The notes beneath the pieces are model-generated. The model was not told the DNA's origin. It saw nothing but the letters and a program-made list of their open reading frames with translations, and did not search any database. Positions 2,331-47,736 of a stretch of DNA of 64,000 nt are shown one piece after another; position 1 is the first letter of the stretch; each line of letters starts with the position of its first letter. Made by a program: the position numbers and the translations under genes. The DNA comes from a virus (Duplodnaviria; Caudoviricetes), in IMG/VR virus record IMGVR_UViG_3300031555_001441, positions 64,001 to 128,000 of that record; one strand, given 5' to 3'.

Positions 2331-3446
2331 TTACTCCGCTACACTTGAAAGCATTGACGTGCAATCTTTGTTCCAGAAGAGCAGTCCGATGACTACAGAT
2401 TCCTCAAGCATCGGATATATGCAAACTTTATCACCATCGACGTAGTTAGCTACAATGGATTTAAGAGTATCTACTCGGAATTCACCTGTGTATACATCAG
2501 GAGTAATACCAGTTGCAGCTACCTCGCACTTGAGCGTATCTGTATAAAGTTTAACTTGTCCATCTCCTACGGACACAAATATCGTATCTTCAGTCGAGGT
2601 AGAAAGCAATGTTGCTTGCCCTAAGAACTTATTGATTGCAGCTGCGCTCGTTTCAACATAATTCGATACTGGATGCTTCATCATGTTGAGGAATATTGCA
2701 GAGTTATAACTACCTACGCCTTCATCGGTTTCATACTGAGGCTGGAATTCTGATACATATGAATAGCTGTCCAGCTGAAGAGATATCAGATAGCTGCGGT
2801 CATAGCGTGTTAATTTTGCACCTTCAGGAAGTGCATTGAATAGATTCACTATTGTTTCAGAAAGTAGACAAGTTGTCCCAAGATTGCTTCTTTTAGAATG
2901 TGTAAACAAGCTGTTATCAAAATCGCCGACAAGAACATCACCGGTATCACCTATCCACACTTTAGTATATACAGGATGCGTGAAAGACATTGCTATTGCA
3001 AACATCTGATGATCTTTGACAAATCTCCATGCATCTTTGTCAATATCAACAGAGACTCCGGACTGATCTGATACATCCTTTGGGCTATTAAGTTCAAGCT
3101 CAATGCTATCTATCATCTTCGGAAGTGTAAATTTGGATTTACCTGAGTGTAAAACGAGCCCATTCTCTATGAACTCAAGTGTGACTGTCGCGGTTTCAAA
3201 TGTAGACACAAGCTGTTTCAATAAGAGGCTGTCTACAAATATAGATTCAGATGCATCTGCATCGCCAGCACCCTTTACAATCAGTTGCGTTACAATAGAT
3301 TCAGCTTCTAGATTAACTCTGAGCGATGTCTTTGTAGCAGTCAGCTGAGCTAAACAGCTCTTTCTGTAGTACTTTGACACGTTTGAATTGATGATTCCGA
3401 GATTGAGTGCATCGGAAAGCGGTTTTGTGTTGCATGTAAACTGCAT
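2331..3446 (-). CDS. dnaN: DNA polymerase sliding clamp, DnaN/beta-like
   Basis: 371 aa; MQFTCNTKPLSDAL start and SGKSKFTLP resemble beta clamp; lies between polymerase and clamp loader. Confidence 0.7.
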   Translation of the reverse strand: MQFTCNTKPLSDALNLGIINSNVSKYYRKSCLAQLTATKTSLRVNLEAESIVTQLIVKGAGDADASESIFVDSLLLKQLVSTFETATVTLEFIENGLVLHSGKSKFTLPKMIDSIELELNSPKDVSDQSGVSVDIDKDAWRFVKDHQMFAIAMSFTHPVYTKVWIGDTGDVLVGDFDNSLFTHSKRSNLGTTCLLSETIVNLFNALPEGAKLTRYDRSYLISLQLDSYSYVSEFQPQYETDEGVGSYNSAIFLNMMKHPVSNYVETSAAAINKFLGQATLLSTSTEDTIFVSVGDGQVKLYTDTLKCEVAATGITPDVYTGEFRVDTLKSIVANYVDGDKVCIYPMLEESVVIGLLFWNKDCTSMLSSVAE

Positions 3447-3451
3447 AACAT

Positions 3452-4675
3452 TTAATCTCCTTGTAAAACTTTTCTTTTGATATGAGAAGTAAATTCTTCT
3501 ATATGTATTCTATAACGATTCATGTATTCTACGATGCGATCCTCCAGTTCCTGTGTAGCTTTACCATTCACGCCATGCGCAGCGTCGCCTCTAGGTTTAC
3601 TTCCATCTTCTTCTTTGAATACTGGAAGTGTAAATTCTAGATCGACCAGCTGGTACTGTAGCCACTTTAGATGTTCCGGATCCATTGTATATATGTCTTG
3701 TATGTTTTCAAGTTTCTCAACTTCAGGATATGGGCACGGATATTCAAGTCCATACCAACGAATTGTTGTGGTTACATCACAGCTTATCGGGAACGGTAAG
3801 AAACTACCAGCTTCACTCATAGTAGTACTGAGTATGTTAGCACCTTCTTCTGCATACTGTATTGGAACTTCTGCAATCAATTCATCATGAACAGGAAGCA
3901 AGAATCGACCTCCTATAGATTGCCACGTTGGATTGTTTTCCAGCTGAATCATAGCAAGTTTGGTCATTTCTGCTGCAGACCCTTGAATTATACTGTTTGT
4001 GCATTGTCTAGTTGCTTCAGTTATCTTTGGTCGATTGTTGATAACTTTAATGTGCTCTTCGTATAACTCTTTAGTTCTCCGAGCGATTTGACCGAAGTAC
4101 TTGTATCCTTTGAATTCTCGCATGAGCTCTTCGACAATACGTTGCGGAATTTCATTTTTAGTGTTCTGCAAAGTAGATACATCTAATGGATCAACATCTG
4201 GGTTGACGTATCCCTTCATCGGTAAAAATTCAAATTCAGGCAACTGCATATCTGGTATGTGACGACGACGTCCTAATATAGTTTCAACATATCCATGCGT
4301 CCTTGCCATATTTTGAGAACTCAACATCAACTGACGCAAATTTGGAAACGCATTCAGAACAGCATCATATATCTTTTGTGCTTTAGAAGTTTTATCATCT
4401 TCAGTCATATCATCACGTGTACCAAACAATTGCTCTGCAATTGACGGAACAGATCTTCCGTAACATATGCCCAATACAATAACTTTGGCTTCTCCACGTC
4501 TGGCTTTACCATCAGGTTGATATTCATGTGTTTCTGGATGAAACTCCAAACATTTTTCATATGGAAGATTAAATGCTAAACTTGCTATTGTAGCATATAT
4601 GTCCTTGCCCTCTTTAAAAGCTTTTATCATGTTTGGATCTTGAGATACAAATGCTGTGATCTTTGGTTCTTGCTG
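3452..4675 (-). CDS. polA: Family A DNA polymerase, exon 2
   Basis: QQEPKITAF continues motif A; motif B RGEAKVIVLGICYG; NSIIQGSAAEMTK; motif C LPVHDELIAE. Confidence 0.93.
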   Translation of the reverse strand, partial: QQEPKITAFVSQDPNMIKAFKEGKDIYATIASLAFNLPYEKCLEFHPETHEYQPDGKARRGEAKVIVLGICYGRSVPSIAEQLFGTRDDMTEDDKTSKAQKIYDAVLNAFPNLRQLMLSSQNMARTHGYVETILGRRRHIPDMQLPEFEFLPMKGYVNPDVDPLDVSTLQNTKNEIPQRIVEELMREFKGYKYFGQIARRTKELYEEHIKVINNRPKITEATRQCTNSIIQGSAAEMTKLAMIQLENNPTWQSIGGRFLLPVHDELIAEVPIQYAEEGANILSTTMSEAGSFLPFPISCDVTTTIRWYGLEYPCPYPEVEKLENIQDIYTMDPEHLKWLQYQLVDLEFTLPVFKEEDGSKPRGDAAHGVNGKATQELEDRIVEYMNRYRIHIEEFTSHIKRKVLQGD

Positions 4676-7276: not shown

Positions 7277-7720
7277 TCAACATTTTGCAGTGTAAGTTGC
7301 ATATGAATCGGCATTTTCTCTTAATCTCATCTCTGTTACAACTACTCCAGGTGAGTATGCATCTAAAGTAGCTTGCAACTGCAATGCTATTTGTTCGCAT
7401 ATAGTTTCAGCACTTACTACACTGCTATACGCCTTTGTGGGAACACCTAATCCGTCAAATGTAGCTGCGACGGATTGTGCTTGTAGATCTTTGTGATAGT
7501 ATAAAAATGTATGATTTGGAACACATGCGCTTAAGTGAGCGCGCAGCATCTTGAATTCATATACAAGTGATGACGCATCGGACTGCAACGTGTTCTGAAC
7601 TGTAGCTTCAACTAAATATCGACAGCCTTGTAACATGTACTTATGAGATAAGATATCTTGTACTAGATACACACAGTCAAACTCTATTCGTTGTGTAACT
7701 GTATTATTTTTTGTGATCAT
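7277..7720 (-). CDS. QueD/PTPS-like T-fold protein with degenerate active site
   Basis: Pattern QGCRYLVEATV...LVYEFKMLR...NHTFL...SAETI...RLRENADSYATY parallels QueD HGHxYxVEV...MVxDFxxLK...DHxxL...TAENI...VxETxxSYA; GGAGG RBS. Confidence 0.6.
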   Translation of the reverse strand: MITKNNTVTQRIEFDCVYLVQDILSHKYMLQGCRYLVEATVQNTLQSDASSLVYEFKMLRAHLSACVPNHTFLYYHKDLQAQSVAATFDGLGVPTKAYSSVVSAETICEQIALQLQATLDAYSPGVVVTEMRLRENADSYATYTAKC

Positions 7721-8222
7721 AGCTGACCTCCAGCGCATGTAATCCAGATATCGTACCACACCAATATTGATCTGCAGGATTATCTACAGATGTTATAACA
7801 TATATTCCATTTGATGTGCAATGTAACGCAAGCGGTACATCATCAATCTCAAATCCGCCTATATAGTCGTTATCGTCTAACGGTACGATTTGATCAGGAT
7901 GCTGTCTTAACATATTGTATTTATCACTCAACAGATCGTCTATTAACTCATGTTTGCGTCTGTTCTTTGTCGATACACTGAGCAATGGTAAATGTGAGTT
8001 ATCTATCATAAACTGAATCAGCAAACATATCGCACCTAATACTCCAACACAGACGGCACCTCCGATCCATGTCATAACACTTGTATCCGATGTCATCTCG
8101 GATAAAGTAATTTCTCCGGACTGGAATTTCTGTTCCTCAGTATCAATACGCAGTACAACAAACAGTGCACATAAGATAGCAGCTATTATGAATACAATTC
8201 CCACAACTTTAAATATTTTCAT
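7704..8222 (-). CDS. Membrane protein with two predicted TM helices
   Basis: Two hydrophobic segments in the N-terminal half. Confidence 0.7.
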   Translation of the reverse strand: MKIFKVVGIVFIIAAILCALFVVLRIDTEEQKFQSGEITLSEMTSDTSVMTWIGGAVCVGVLGAICLLIQFMIDNSHLPLLSVSTKNRRKHELIDDLLSDKYNMLRQHPDQIVPLDDNDYIGGFEIDDVPLALHCTSNGIYVITSVDNPADQYWCGTISGLHALEVSYDHKK

Positions 8223-21913: not shown

Positions 21914-22013
21914 TGATTTATTTTACAAGTATATTATAAGCCCTTCTGATTAAATCAGTATTATATATTTATTAAATTTTTATAAATTTTAAAGATCAAT
22001 ACATAGAAAAAGC
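21914..22013 (-). promoter_or_regulatory. Dispersed AT-rich promoter-like repeat, copy 1
   Basis: Near-identical to 52108-52183 and 61611-61710; TATAAT boxes and a CTGATTAAATCAG palindrome. Confidence 0.75.
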
Positions 22014-22037
22014 TCCGATGTATTTCGGAGCTTTGTT

Positions 22038-23510
22038 TCATATTACTCTATTGAGTGCTTTATCATACGACCAAGGCTGTATTTGTTCAAATGCATGTGC
22101 AATAGCAAACACATCTTCATCTTGATACTGCTTTCCGATGATCTGCATCCCTACCGGAAGCCCATCGTTTGTCATACCTGCCGGAACAGATGCAGCTGGA
22201 TATCCGACGAAGTTGACCAGGGGTGTTTCGGCAAATGCAATGAATCCTATATTTGGATCAATTGCAACTCCGTCTACTTCCTTTACACATCCGTTGTCTT
22301 CATTGCGAAGCGGCGGACATATTGATGTCGGAGAGACGATTGCGTAATATCCTTGATCAAATACATCTTCAAAGTTGTCAAGAATATCTGTCCGAATCTC
22401 ATTGAACGTGCGCATGCTGTGAATATCAGTATCATATGCGATTTTATTGAATTTTATAAACTCTTCTGGTAGCTCATCTCTGTGATCCTTAACCAGATCG
22501 AGTCCTTGACCTCTCCATAACTCTAAGTCGAGAGCGGTATCAAGCGATATTGACCATGCCCAGCAATACATTATACTGTATGCGGGAAACTTGAAGTTGA
22601 AATTGACGAAGTCTACGTGTGCTCCAGCTTCTTCAAGTCGTTTAGCTGCATTGAATACTATTTCACGAACTTCACTATCCGTTGAGAAAAGATTGAAGTC
22701 ATATGTAAATGCGATCTTCTTTCCCTTGATCGGCTTCTTCATCAACTCTAAGAAATCCTTATTGTTGTTGATCGGAAGACTGATCGGATCTCTCGGATTG
22801 TATCTCGCCATTCCGTTGAGCATCTGCGCGCTATCTTCAACTGTTTTTGTAAGTGCACCATTGAAACAATATGGATGTGTAGCTGACCAACCATCTGGCC
22901 TACAGTAACTTGGAATAGTTCCCAGCGATGCTTTGAAGCCGAAAAGATTGCACCAGCCTGCGGGAATTCGTATAGATCCACCTGCATCTCCACCTTCCCC
23001 AAGAAGAATGAGACCGTCTGCAACAGCTGCTGCGGTACCGCCAGAAGATCCACCTGACGTTCTTCCGGTATCAAATGGATTCTTAGTAGCACCATACATC
23101 TTGTTGATGCAAGCTCCACTGAATCCAAATGCCGGCGCATTTGTTTTTCCTACCGCTATAGCACCAAATTCTTTTGCAGCGGTGTAAAACATAGAATCTG
23201 CATCGTCAACTGCAACGAGTGATTTTACGCCGCCGTGAGAATTTGTCCACCCCTTCTTAGATGGTAAGAAATCTTTAAGGGCAACAGGAACTCCAGCAAA
23301 AGGTCCACAGTATTCTCCTGACTGAATACGCTTTTCCAGCTGACGTGCTTCCTCCATTGCATCCTCAATCTTTGTGTAGGTAAATGCATTGATTGACGGA
23401 TTTCTAGCTTGTATGCGTTCTGCAAAGTAGTTGATTACTTCCGTAGGTGAAACTTGTTTAGTGTTAACAAGCTCACCTAACTGTACTCCGGATAATCTTT
23501 CCAGCTCCAT
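22038..23510 (-). CDS. Amidase-signature family enzyme (GatA-like fold)
   Basis: GVPVALKD, GKTNAPAF, SGGSSGGTAAAV, GGDAGGSIRIPA, GLPVGMQIIG. Confidence 0.95.
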   Translation of the reverse strand: MELERLSGVQLGELVNTKQVSPTEVINYFAERIQARNPSINAFTYTKIEDAMEEARQLEKRIQSGEYCGPFAGVPVALKDFLPSKKGWTNSHGGVKSLVAVDDADSMFYTAAKEFGAIAVGKTNAPAFGFSGACINKMYGATKNPFDTGRTSGGSSGGTAAAVADGLILLGEGGDAGGSIRIPAGWCNLFGFKASLGTIPSYCRPDGWSATHPYCFNGALTKTVEDSAQMLNGMARYNPRDPISLPINNNKDFLELMKKPIKGKKIAFTYDFNLFSTDSEVREIVFNAAKRLEEAGAHVDFVNFNFKFPAYSIMYCWAWSISLDTALDLELWRGQGLDLVKDHRDELPEEFIKFNKIAYDTDIHSMRTFNEIRTDILDNFEDVFDQGYYAIVSPTSICPPLRNEDNGCVKEVDGVAIDPNIGFIAFAETPLVNFVGYPAASVPAGMTNDGLPVGMQIIGKQYQDEDVFAIAHAFEQIQPWSYDKALNRVI

Positions 23511-23513
23511 AGA

Positions 23514-24251
23514 TTACACCTTCACATTGTATTTGTTGAGATATTCCGCACCGACATCTTCTTTCTTCCACTTCCTCGCTATCTTGTAGCCTAAAGGGGA
23601 GAAGATGGCTTCTATAGCGAGTTCCAAAAGCATCATCAAGAATGAACATACAAACACCTGCTGAATTGTCCATCCAAAGAAGATGAATGATACAAACAAT
23701 GCAAATATGAAGTTATCTACAAACTGACCGGCAGCTGTTGAAATGAAACTTCTTACAGCAAATCCGCCGAAAGTATCTTTCTTGTCAACAAGTTTACCTA
23801 TCCCTTTGTTGACAAGAGAATTAACTAGACCTCCAAGGAACATCGCCGCCGCTGAACCGACAACTACATACCATGTTGATGCAAACGTGGAATCCAGCGC
23901 AGCGTTGATAGCAGCACTGATTTCAGGGGTTGCTCCGGCATAACTAGATGCCCAGATTCCGGGAATAGAAACAATTGCAGCATATAGAAGTGCAGTAAGC
24001 AAACTTATTATTGTTGCAATTGTGTTGAGTATGGTTGCAGCTTTTGGTCCAAAGCGTTTGCAAACTGCATCCATACACAGAAATGATATCCATGAAACAA
24101 ATATGCCTGCAGTCGATGCTAACCACGGAAGGTTGAAAATCGACTTGTTGGCCAGTAAATTCATGGATATCACGGATAGAATGAATACTGCTGTTACGAT
24201 ACCTGGTATCGCTCTCATAGTGTCTTTGACTTGTGTTAACAATTTCTTCAT
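23514..24251 (-). CDS. VUT/YhhQ family queuosine-precursor transporter
   Basis: MNLLANK, FLCMDAVCKRFGPKAA, RSFISTAAGQFVDNFIF; about six TM segments; GGAGG RBS. Confidence 0.85.
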   Translation of the reverse strand: MKKLLTQVKDTMRAIPGIVTAVFILSVISMNLLANKSIFNLPWLASTAGIFVSWISFLCMDAVCKRFGPKAATILNTIATIISLLTALLYAAIVSIPGIWASSYAGATPEISAAINAALDSTFASTWYVVVGSAAAMFLGGLVNSLVNKGIGKLVDKKDTFGGFAVRSFISTAAGQFVDNFIFALFVSFIFFGWTIQQVFVCSFLMMLLELAIEAIFSPLGYKIARKWKKEDVGAEYLNKYNVKV

Positions 24252-24265
24252 GTTAACTACCTCCA

Positions 24266-24312
24266 TTATTTTTATTTTAAGACGGGCTGTCAGGATGTTA
24301 CAAAACCGTCTT
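24266..24312 (-). promoter_or_regulatory. PreQ1-I-like riboswitch candidate
   Basis: AAGACGG-UU-UUGU-loop-C-CCGUCUU followed by an A-rich tail ending AUAA beside the RBS; upstream of a VUT gene. Confidence 0.5.
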
Positions 24313-24332
24313 ATTTGCATTCTTCGTATTGA

Positions 24333-26113: not shown

Positions 26114-26496
26114 CAGAATAAGAATTCATACTCCTTATATGCTTTTGAGATGCGTTTGCATATCTTTTTAAAGATCAACGCAGCCCCTTCCTCTATATTA
26201 TATAACGATTCTGGTTCATAAATATCGAAACCAAGTGTTCTCTCTTCAGGGCTGAGTTCTATCACATTGACTCTTATTTTGTTGAGATATGTCGTGATAT
26301 TGAGGTCTAACACCATTTCATGAACTTCAGGATCTGATACATTTTCCACATATGGCTCTCTATATAGTAAGGTGATGTATACATCGAATGTGTTAGGCGT
26401 AGTTTTGAATTTAAATGCACCGTCAAGCCAGTTATACATGTATCGACCTATCATGTTAACTTGTTGACTTGCAGGAATCTTCTTAAATGTTTTCAT
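26113..26496 (-). CDS. Hypothetical protein
   Basis: ORF coupled to its neighbours; start uncertain (26496 or 26511). Confidence 0.7.
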   Translation of the reverse strand: MKTFKKIPASQQVNMIGRYMYNWLDGAFKFKTTPNTFDVYITLLYREPYVENVSDPEVHEMVLDLNITTYLNKIRVNVIELSPEERTLGFDIYEPESLYNIEEGAALIFKKICKRISKAYKEYEFLF

Positions 26497-27776
26497 GTTA
26501 TATCCGTCCATTCTCCATTTACATATCTATGTATCTTTAGTTTGCGTTCCCACTGTCCTGCAGATGAATTATACTGCCATAAGCCTAGGCTTGATATCGG
26601 AACAGCTACCCAAGTTCCTGTAGTTGCATCATATTTATGTACGATTGAAGCTGCGGGGGTTTGTGACCAGTTAGAATACAGCTGTATTAAACTAGAATCC
26701 GACGGCAGCGGATCAGATGGCTGAATCAGCGTTCCACCAGGTGTCAGTGACCATCCGTCAAAAGTATATCCAGTTCGAGTAGGTACTGGAAGCTGTCCAA
26801 ACACAGGCTGTTGCCACTGTGCATACAATGTTAAATTAGCATTACTTGTATATGATTGTGCAACTGTGTATGTGGTTCCGGTTCCGGCTGCATTAGTATT
26901 CCAATTGATAAATGTTTTGGTGTATCGTTGCGTTTCAGGAGTTGCTACATCTGAAGGCACATTGAAATGAACAAAATATGGACCCGCAGGAACATCAGGA
27001 CCGCGTCTTATCAATATAGGGCCATCTAAAGATTTGACAGCTACATATGTAGAAGTGTTCCCGTCAAACTGTCCTCCGTTAGCATTATATGTTATCACAG
27101 CATTTTCAAGTGCATCTTTTAATGAGAATGTAGATGCCCATCCCCACCAGTCAGCTCCAGAAGTGTGTGTGGTAAATTGATTAAATTTAACATACAAACT
27201 CGCAAACGCGTTCATGGACTGATACTCTGATTTAAGATAGAAATATAATCTTTCATTAGATGTATCTGCAATGAATGTAGCTGTAGCACCATCAGGAGCA
27301 TCTGTATATACATCACCATCAGATAGTACACGAGTTGCTACCACAATGTGAGGAGGTTCATACATGTGCGAAGTTGGATCATATATCGAAGAATCTGTTG
27401 ATGCAAATATCGCATTTATACGAGGTAAAGATGCACCTCCAATTGTCCACGAATAGGGATTAACAGCTGGAAGTGATGTGATTCCATATTGACTTGATGT
27501 TATGTGATTGTATACTAGTTCAACTTCTTTATTTGTTCCTGATGTATTGACTGCGCTATCAGGAGTTAATATTAGATACAGACCAAATGGTCGCTGGTTG
27601 AGCCAGCGTGCATTATGTGCTGAATACTTAGATCGGACGAGTTTCAAATATGTGATATAGATTTTTGCAGGATTGGATTCGTCAACTTCTAAGGTAGCCG
27701 TAAGTCTATCTTCGCCCGTACCTCCTACTTCAGTCCCAACTAAATGATTAACTATCTTATATTTAAATCTTGCCAT
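26493..27776 (-). CDS. Virion protein with InlB B-repeat (Listeria-Bacteroides repeat) domains
   Basis: ITYNANGG, FINWNTNAAGTGT...LTLYAQW, PTRTGYTFDGW. Confidence 0.75.
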   Translation of the reverse strand: MARFKYKIVNHLVGTEVGGTGEDRLTATLEVDESNPAKIYITYLKLVRSKYSAHNARWLNQRPFGLYLILTPDSAVNTSGTNKEVELVYNHITSSQYGITSLPAVNPYSWTIGGASLPRINAIFASTDSSIYDPTSHMYEPPHIVVATRVLSDGDVYTDAPDGATATFIADTSNERLYFYLKSEYQSMNAFASLYVKFNQFTTHTSGADWWGWASTFSLKDALENAVITYNANGGQFDGNTSTYVAVKSLDGPILIRRGPDVPAGPYFVHFNVPSDVATPETQRYTKTFINWNTNAAGTGTTYTVAQSYTSNANLTLYAQWQQPVFGQLPVPTRTGYTFDGWSLTPGGTLIQPSDPLPSDSSLIQLYSNWSQTPAASIVHKYDATTGTWVAVPISSLGLWQYNSSAGQWERKLKIHRYVNGEWTDIT

Positions 27777-30031: not shown

Positions 30032-30682
30032 TTATCTTAGAGGAAGTCCGGATTCGACATTCTCATAGAGCCAATTTATAAAGGTTTCATCTGTTATGTT
30101 TTGATCACCAGATATAGTAATAGTTTTATATAATGTACTATACCAATTATTATTGGCATAAGCTATCAAAGAATTATTGTTGTTATTATTAGTAAATCCA
30201 TATTTAAAATAATTATCATAAAAATCAATATAAATAAATTCATAATTATTATATGAACTATTTTTAAAATTTATATTATATTGACCAGAAATAGAAATAT
30301 TTATATTATCTTTAAATACAATAACATCACCATCGTGTAATACTAACACATCAGTAAAATCAGCATACAACGAAACTTCATCTGATTGAGGTGTATATGG
30401 AAATGTTACACGAGTTGATGCATCACCTTTGACGCTATTCCATCCACTAAACGACGCTGAAGGCTTCGTTGGATTGACGGGAGCCGATACAGATCCACCG
30501 GACTGCACCATACTGATTGCATATGTGTTGTCATCGTAGTTTATGAATTTAACTGAATGTCCACCCGAGATTGTAGAGCCTAGCGAGAATGCGACATATT
30601 GCCCTGAGTTATTAGCATCTTCAATCTTTACAGTTTCTATATCATTGATTACATCGTTGCCGAGTTTTATGTTTCTGCCCAT
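30032..30682 (-). CDS. Virion protein with a B-repeat-like domain
   Basis: HSVKF...APVNPTKPSASFSGWN...SLYADF; AGGAG RBS. Confidence 0.65.
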   Translation of the reverse strand: MGRNIKLGNDVINDIETVKIEDANNSGQYVAFSLGSTISGGHSVKFINYDDNTYAISMVQSGGSVSAPVNPTKPSASFSGWNSVKGDASTRVTFPYTPQSDEVSLYADFTDVLVLHDGDVIVFKDNINISISGQYNINFKNSSYNNYEFIYIDFYDNYFKYGFTNNNNNNSLIAYANNNWYSTLYKTITISGDQNITDETFINWLYENVESGLPLR

Positions 30683-30777
30683 AGCTGAAATCGCTCCTAG
30701 AATATAATTTGTTGTAAATATACAAGGTTGCATAATGTTAAATGCCCTACTATAGAAGTAAGGGCATCATCAACATA

Positions 30778-47659: not shown

Positions 47660-47736
<77 letters not shown>

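Follow-up and report, generated by a model that had tools for sequence, protein, structure and literature searches.

A candidate preQ1 salvage cassette in a large phage: a riboswitch-like leader, a divergent transporter and an amidase

What is a transporter of the VUT/YhhQ family doing beside an amidase-signature enzyme in a phage genome, behind a structured leader RNA? The question is raised by positions 22038-24312 of a 64,000-nucleotide stretch of viral DNA (Duplodnaviria; Caudoviricetes), here called the window. The window spans 64001-128000 in one virus record of 144,269 bp (IMGVR_UViG_3300031555_001441), rated 96% complete, and its source is a 144 kb phage of the gut or rumen. On balance the evidence favours a salvage unit that recovers preQ1, a 7-deazaguanine base, and is under feedback control. 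Sequence, genomic context and distribution are the basis on which we infer the ligand, what the amidase acts on, which way regulation runs and that the base ends up in DNA.

The cassette lies entirely on the minus strand, in the order structured leader, transporter, amidase and intrinsic terminator. The riboswitch-like leader (24259-24312; covariance model R1, 85.8 bits, E 4e-14) sits in an intergenic stretch of 81 nt (24252-24332). The transporter belongs to a divergent subfamily of VUT/COG1738 and matches Pfam Vut_1 (PF02592) with 67.5 bits against a cut-off of 27.2 (E 2e-18). Its open reading frame spans 23514-24320 and runs through the leader at its 5' end; the likely start is the ATG at 24251, behind GGAGG, giving a protein of 245 aa (23514-24251). 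After a gap of 3 nt follows the amidase-signature enzyme, a candidate preQ1-releasing acylamidase of 490 aa (22038-23510; Pfam PF01425, E 5e-86, 290 bits). The terminator (22009-22034) begins 4 nt past the amidase stop and closes the two-gene unit with a 10-bp stem containing 5 G-C pairs, a 6-nt loop, and a T run of TTCTATGTAT beyond the stem-ending TTT. The initial annotation had described a VUT/YhhQ gene with an amidase-signature gene 3 nt downstream and a terminator after it, and Pfam, the coordinates and the hairpin bear this out in full.

The leader carries the first part of the argument. Its stem P1 consists of 7 bp, AAGACGG/CCGUCUU, with the 5' strand at 24306-24312 and the 3' strand at 24279-24285. 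The stem encloses a loop of 20 nt (UUUUGUAACAUCCUGACAGC, 24286-24305). On the 3' side there follow an A-rich tail (24265-24278) and the Shine-Dalgarno sequence (SD) GGAGG (24260-24264). In the window copy, the second helix, P2, joins ACAUCC in the loop (24293-24298) to GGAGGU (24259-24264), with one A.G mismatch.

Many other contigs carry the same motif. The model R1 was built from six leader copies and applied to loci fetched by a DNA pattern. The resulting family has 73 copies, 56 of them distinct, nearly all on IMG/VR phage contigs, with 4 on phage-like contigs binned into metagenome-assembled genomes. Phage contigs that encode relatives of both proteins have the same leader, with stem sequences that differ yet still pair. 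A first, loose DNA pattern returned mostly chance matches and was replaced by the covariance model and a stricter pattern; only 4 of 92 genome_contigs pattern matches were real, all of them on phage-like contigs in metagenome-assembled genomes.

Across the family P1 is 93% paired. Six of its seven pairs have changed on both sides, with 113 double-change cells. The covariation score is 0.774 versus 0.161 in shuffles (0 of 500 reach 0.774), and the covariation collapses once the partner is slid by 1-3 columns. Other parts are invariant among the 56 distinct copies: the closing G-C pair of P1, followed by UUUUGUA 3' of the P1 5' strand; UGA(C/A)ANC before the P1 3' strand; the C directly 5' of that strand; and, in the tail, YAAAAAUAA. 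This is far beyond what chance would produce: the leader belongs to a real, conserved RNA family.

The loop segment between UUUUGUA and UGA is an anti-SD stretch. Three rare variants of this segment can be compared with the tails of their own and of other copies. The variant CUCAU, pairing with AUGAG, matches its own tail (1/1) and none of 55 others. For CUACU/AGUAG the counts are 1/1 and 2/55, and for (A)ACCUU/AAGGUU they are 2/2 and 5/54. Together with the covariation of P1, these compensating loop-tail variants fit an H-type pseudoknot. The initial annotation had placed the pseudoknot between UUGU and AUAA; the pairing that covaries is instead the one between the anti-SD stretch of the loop and the SD.

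The genes behind the motif point to what it may sense. The gene that comes first 3' of the motif encodes a VUT transporter in 48 of the 73 copies; in 23 it is queF. Behind queF come genes for QueC, a QueD-like protein and a radical-SAM protein of the QueE type, so that these operons read queF-queC-queD-queE. Some contigs, such as L029, have two motif copies, one ahead of each unit. The regulon of the leader family is that of a preQ1 riboswitch. We read the leader as an expanded preQ1-I-like riboswitch in its working principle, and not as a member of RF00522 by the library's own test. The earlier description of the leader as preQ1-I-like holds for topology and regulon, but neither its proposed pseudoknot nor a match to the preQ1 models of Infernal was borne out. 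In the literature, searches on a fourth class of preQ1 riboswitch and on phage preQ1 riboswitches with YhhQ brought up nothing relevant and no description of this leader RNA.

Several variations on the motif were observed along the way. In L266 two tandem copies (4242-4317 and 4500-4568, plus strand) stand ahead of a single VUT gene. In L001 a nine-codon upstream open reading frame (3189-3220) follows the riboswitch-like motif and precedes a second SD of the VUT gene. Among the gene sets following the 73 motif copies, 26 pair VUT with a short-chain dehydrogenase rather than an amidase (L029:1368-2785(-), L023, L102, L120, L153, L199 and others). The dehydrogenase looks like a second, equally undescribed partner enzyme of VUT; a search for it in the amidase-bearing bacterial family described below found none at E <= 1e-40, which is uninformative. 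Downstream clusters of 362-376 aa, 277 aa and 147 aa were considered as new pathway genes and set aside as a sliding clamp, a Cas4-like nuclease and a resolvase, all neighbouring replication genes. Two phage QueF genes contain an intein with an HNH or HTH endonuclease domain (L199:4117-5661(-) and L219:574-2085(+)), with Intein_splicing and QueF in one frame of 503-514 aa.

The second part of the argument is the pairing of the two genes. VUT and the amidase are adjacent in the phage contigs L001, L002, L003, L004, L278 and L180. In metagenomes the amidase forms more than 120 sequence clusters at >60% identity; of three cluster contexts, one is a phage-like contig with the R1 motif and two are bacterial and chromosomal, and VUT is directly upstream in each. 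An orthologue of the amidase is present in 3 of 349 genomes in a class-wide sample, and in the bacterial family to which one of those three belongs it is present in 26 of 143 genomes, at 59-64% identity to the phage protein. At the bacterial loci VUT is immediately upstream of the amidase in 24 of 25 cases, the exception being cut by a contig end. The gene-neighbourhood survey that had been proposed as a check thus finds the pairing conserved in phages and in bacterial chromosomes alike. Far from being peculiar to phages, the two genes form a conserved module, present also in rumen or gut bacteria that can neither make the queuosine precursor nor reduce it.

The bacterial pair has a leader of its own, nearly invariant, of the form CAAGCAG-UUCGGGUCCGAUAUC-CUGCUUG-UAAAA..AAAACCAAAGGAG. 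It is shorter than the phage leader but laid out in the same way, and has no Rfam match. In a genome of another family (L285) its P1 stem shows compensating changes. An unrooted tree of the amidase separates phage and bacterial copies (support 82/72) and gives no direction of transfer. Among annotated phages, blastn with the 5-kb cassette region found no match, and tblastn with the amidase found only relatives below 30% identity.

What the pair may do is suggested by its distribution in the bacterial family. TGT is present in 141 of the 143 genomes and true QueC in 3. QueA is present in all five of the amidase-bearing genomes tested. Because TGT is near universal, QueA is found wherever it was tested and true QueC is so rare, the family evidently lives by salvage. 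QueF occurs in 60 of the genomes, the amidase in 26, and both in one. This exclusion has a Fisher p of 4e-6, with genomes treated as independent and uncorrected for relatedness. On a nucleotide tree of TGT, amidase and QueF genomes alternate among close relatives, with at least five sister contrasts. All 26 amidase-bearing genomes are without true QueC, and 25 of them are without QueF.

The two groups also differ in transporter. QueF genomes have a canonical QPTR-queF operon, whose transporter scores 116 bits against the NCBIfam model for queuosine precursor transporters (TIGR00697). The divergent VUT that accompanies the amidase shares 22% identity with the canonical QPTR found in related bacteria. 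Its bacterial form reaches 48 bits and its phage form 35.4, both below the cut-off of 50.95. Since QueF and the amidase alternate, each with a different transporter, they represent two alternative two-gene routes to the same end: import of preQ0 followed by QueF reduction, or import of another compound followed by amidase hydrolysis. A simple cassette swap at one locus is ruled out, as QueF is not beside the divergent VUT in this family. The QPTR-queF operons of the same family have a further leader (L367:1487-1640, L374, L375), CGACAG-UUCGUUUGUGCCAUC-CUGUCG-UUAAACAAAACCAGGAC, followed by a terminator hairpin. It has no Rfam match, has the core UUUGU.CCAUC in common with the phage motif, and is probably a transcriptional sister variant of it.

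The amidase itself narrows the choice of substrate. Its translation, aligned to 4YJ6, contains the triad K79/S155/S179 (Lys / cis-Ser / Ser) and the motif GGSSGG, and a signal peptide is not apparent. Among solved structures an aryl acylamidase is clearly the nearest (4YJ6/4YJI, E 1.4e-106, residues 7-482); GatA comes next (1e-45). Since that relative releases an amine, an N-acyl form of preQ1, which bears a primary aminomethyl group, is a natural candidate substrate. One such form, 7-(formylamino)methyl-7-deazaguanine (N-formyl-preQ1), is documented as a natural compound in phage DNA (PMC10516641). Because the amidase genomes lack both QueC and QueF, the product of the enzyme must already be preQ1. 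Most likely, then, the imported compound that the amidase turns into preQ1 is an N-acylated form and not 7-amido-7-deazaguanine (ADG). Amidase-signature enzymes had been noted as lying outside the described queuosine pathway, and the literature searched on queuosine salvage and phage deazaguanines agrees: a search for an amidase in queuosine salvage returned nothing relevant. The enzyme is a strong candidate for an undescribed salvage step.

Put together, these observations suggest the following mechanism. The leader would fold as an H-type pseudoknot in which the anti-SD stretch of the loop pairs with the Shine-Dalgarno sequence. Bound preQ1, and possibly also preQ0, would stabilise the pseudoknot and block translation of the transporter. 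When the base is scarce, the divergent VUT would import an amide-blocked preQ1, the best candidate being an N-acyl derivative of the 7-aminomethyl group such as N-formyl-preQ1. In the cytoplasm the amidase would hydrolyse the imported amide to free preQ1. In bacteria, TGT and QueA would then carry preQ1 into tRNA queuosine; in the phage, a DpdA-like transglycosylase would most likely place it in phage DNA. The proposal in the initial annotation of a phage cassette for deazaguanine salvage is supported, and of its two example substrates the acylated preQ1 fits the evidence best. A bolder joint claim can be offered only tentatively: the amidase would be an N-acyl-preQ1 amidohydrolase that, with its VUT importer, takes the place of a preQ0 importer and QueF in gut and rumen bacteria; phages would have captured the pair for salvage-only DpdA modification; and the gate would be a new subclass of preQ1 riboswitch.

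Where does the base go in the phage? The DpdA-like gene lies among replication genes outside the window (G000:C1:57820-58779(-); phrog_887, E 1.2e-43). With the DpdA-like gene at the end of the que operons in L253 and L256 it shares 41-42% identity. Pfam models for QueC, QueF, PTPS (PF01242) and TGT found no match in the 96%-complete genome. The complete relatives G489 and G490, which have the cassette, likewise have DpdA and lack QueF. As the phage has a DpdA-like transglycosylase and neither queC nor queF, the cassette probably feeds DNA modification. The likely host family cannot make preQ0, and the phage would therefore secure the base by bringing a host-type module for import and deblocking, switched on at low levels of the base.

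The most serious alternative, though an unlikely one, is that the cassette serves translation rather than DNA, by raising queuosine in host and phage tRNA during infection. The phage does carry a tRNA-Asn(GUU), a possible queuosine substrate, which ARAGORN and Rfam place at 47661-47736(-), just as had been claimed; it is one of six tRNAs in the window. The bacterial pair, moreover, clearly serves the tRNA pathway, with TGT and QueA present. Against this stand the DpdA-like DNA transglycosylase encoded by the phage and by all four large amidase-bearing relatives tested, and the same-motif relatives in which a full preQ1 synthesis operon stands beside DpdA (L256), an arrangement known from phages that modify their DNA. 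As a consumer of the base, the transglycosylase is more likely than the phage tRNA-Asn, for which a direct link to the cassette is not supported. The two uses are, however, mutually compatible.

Two further features of the DpdA-like genes were seen. The phage's own gene, upstream of the window (G000:C1:55919-59142, equivalent to L283:1919-5142), has on its flanks HNH endonuclease genes and a gene resembling those for dATP/dGTP pyrophosphohydrolases (phrog_801, E 8e-12), whose product could deplete dGTP or favour modified DNA. In G487, the record of L001, the DpdA-like frame (C1:31225-32205) has three in-frame stops, one TGA and two TAA, and may be broken, interrupted or misassembled.

A second alternative concerns the gate. 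The leader could be a constitutive SD-masking structure, a binding site for a protein of phage or host, or a sensor of the imported precursor instead of preQ1. The short loop-SD helix of the window copy and the want of an Rfam match would suit such a role. Against it, UUUUGUA, UGA(C/A)ANC and YAAAAAUAA are invariant and single-stranded around a freely covarying stem, the motif precedes non-homologous genes of one pathway, and it occurs in tandem in L266. The signature of the pocket, UU and C, and the A-rich L3 are in common with preQ1-I (PMC11625349). This alternative is rather improbable.

Less probable again is a general hydrolase of aryl acylamides or xenobiotics that travels with the transporter, so that the pair takes in and cleaves an amide unrelated to queuosine. 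The nearest characterised homologue degrades acetaminophen-type compounds, and VUT scores below the NCBIfam cut-off for queuosine precursor transporters. Yet the RNA motif also stands at the head of queF-queC-queD-queE operons, the pair and QueF almost exclude each other in a family that salvages queuosine, and in the phage fragment L223 the amidase lies within a que operon.

The weakest alternative, which had been the first example in the initial annotation, is that the amidase hydrolyses ADG to 7-carboxy-7-deazaguanine (CDG), for QueC or for DNA; ADG is a natural amide of the 7-deazaguanine pathway, dADG and dCDG occur in phage DNA, and DpdA2 of VH7D inserts CDG with very low efficiency (PMC10516641), but CDG would be a dead end for amidase bacteria that keep TGT, and QueA in the five tested, without QueC or, in 25 of 26, QueF; the phage is without QueC too; and the nearest relative of solved structure acts on N-acyl amides, from which it releases an amine, and does not hydrolyse primary amides. 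With preQ1 as the required product, ADG-to-CDG hydrolysis is ruled out as a useful step.

Several observations count against a preQ1 salvage unit and have to be weighed with the evidence above. In the leader, the loop-SD helix of the window copy is weak, with 5 Watson-Crick pairs around the A.G mismatch and -4.3 kcal/mol. A family-wide energy test of loop-SD pairing, own versus other tails, is not significant (582 of 5000 permutations reach the observed value), because most copies share the same SD. The case for preQ1 as the ligand is drawn entirely from the regulon and from resemblance. No Rfam 15 family, RF00522, RF01054 and RF02680 (preQ1-I, -II and -III) included, matches any copy at E <= 10. 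The scans with RF00522 covered a 351-nt leader stretch, the whole phage genome (G000), four bacterial genomes with the pair, the phage relatives and the bacterial leaders, and the leader does not reach its gathering score of 39 bits. The Infernal check proposed for the leader is therefore negative. A likeness of the leader to Rfam tsr33 (27.6 bits, E 0.11; the gathering score is 109) is a chance one, due to a hairpin followed by an A-rich run.

Other such points concern the pair. The exclusion between amidase and QueF was checked for relatedness with a single-gene tree only. Both genes occur together in the bacterial genome G471 and in the phage fragment L223. Another 58 genomes of the family have neither, so direct uptake of preQ1 is evidently possible without a helper enzyme. 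In L007, a phage relative, switch and transporter are kept but the amidase is missing. Finally, to our knowledge no pool of N-acyl-preQ1 has been described in the gut or rumen.

If the proposed mechanism is right, it bears on several fields. Queuosine is a micronutrient-like modification of tRNA, which gut microbes and their hosts acquire mostly through salvage; it is acknowledged that several of the transporters and processing enzymes involved have yet to be found. By alternating with QueF among close relatives, the transporter-amidase pair would put a concrete enzyme in one of these gaps. It would also imply that an unrecognised, amide-blocked preQ1 circulates in gut and rumen communities. 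For phage biology, here is a large phage that seems to modify its DNA with a 7-deazaguanine it does not make itself, with a riboswitch providing feedback. For RNA biology, the leader would be an expanded preQ1-type aptamer missed by current covariance models and, at ~54 nt, small enough for binding and structural work.

Two features elsewhere in the window complete the picture. The QueD-like gene of the initial annotation corresponds to an open reading frame of 160 aa with a weak match (7277-7759(-); phrog_2389, E 6.8e-6), and no Pfam PTPS match was found in the genome. Just upstream of the cassette, two genes (26493-27776(-) and 30032-30733(-)) encode Listeria-Bacteroides repeat proteins (Pfam Flg_new), which are probably surface or tail-associated.

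How does the cassette compare with known systems? PreQ1-I riboswitches (RF00522; types I-III are treated in PMC11625349) are marked by UU on top of the 5' strand of P1, a C ahead of its 3' strand, an L3 rich in A and pairing with the SD (PMC11625349). The leader resembles them as an H-type pseudoknot: UU comes directly after the 5' strand of P1, an invariant C stands directly before its 3' strand and above the closing G-C pair, itself invariant, L3 is rich in A, P2 involves the SD, and the genes controlled are those of queuosine synthesis and transport. The elements of the pocket, G-UUUU, the C before the closing C and the YAAAAAUAA tail, are found in all 56 distinct copies. It differs in size: P1 has 7 bp against ~5, L3 has 13-14 nt, and the loop of 20 nt contains the invariant UUUUGUA and UGA(C/A)ANC where L1 of preQ1-I has 1-3 nt. 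The aptamer thus measures ~54 nt rather than ~34-45 nt, with ~7-8 nt preceding the anti-SD stretch. A further difference is that the leader is found almost only on phage contigs.

The transporter is similar to YhhQ/QPTR of E. coli (COG1738), an importer of preQ0 and preQ1 (PMC5372724, PMC11130926), in its Vut_1 family, its pathway context and its riboswitch control. It is unlike YhhQ/QPTR in its TIGR00697 score below the cut-off and in its coupling with an amidase, whereas YhhQ/QPTR occurs alone or with QueF. The amidase is similar over its full length to the aryl acylamidase 4YJ6/4YJI and has the same Ser-cisSer-Lys signature. Enzymes of that class cleave an N-acyl amide and release the amine. 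The known enzyme acts on xenobiotic anilides, while the phage enzyme lies in an operon for uptake of a queuosine precursor and would act on a deazaguanine.

Phages with 7-deazaguanine DNA-modification clusters have DpdA together with FolE, QueD, QueE and QueC, with or without QueF (PMC6884629, PMC10516641). The phage described here is like them in its DpdA-like transglycosylase, and its relatives carry queF-queC-queD-queE. Unlike them, it has no synthesis genes and has instead an importer, an amidase and riboswitch control; neither the reliance on importer and amidase nor the riboswitch control is mentioned in PMC6884629 or PMC10516641.

The nearest parallel in principle is queuine salvage in Clostridioides difficile (QueK, QueL and ECF-QueT), as summarised in PMC11130926. 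According to that summary, the system of C. difficile uses unrelated enzymes, a nucleoside hydrolase (QueK) and a radical-SAM lyase (QueL), with a transporter of another family, and involves no amide bond. Like the phage cassette as proposed here, it takes in a queuosine-related compound and converts it to preQ1, in an operon under a preQ1 riboswitch.

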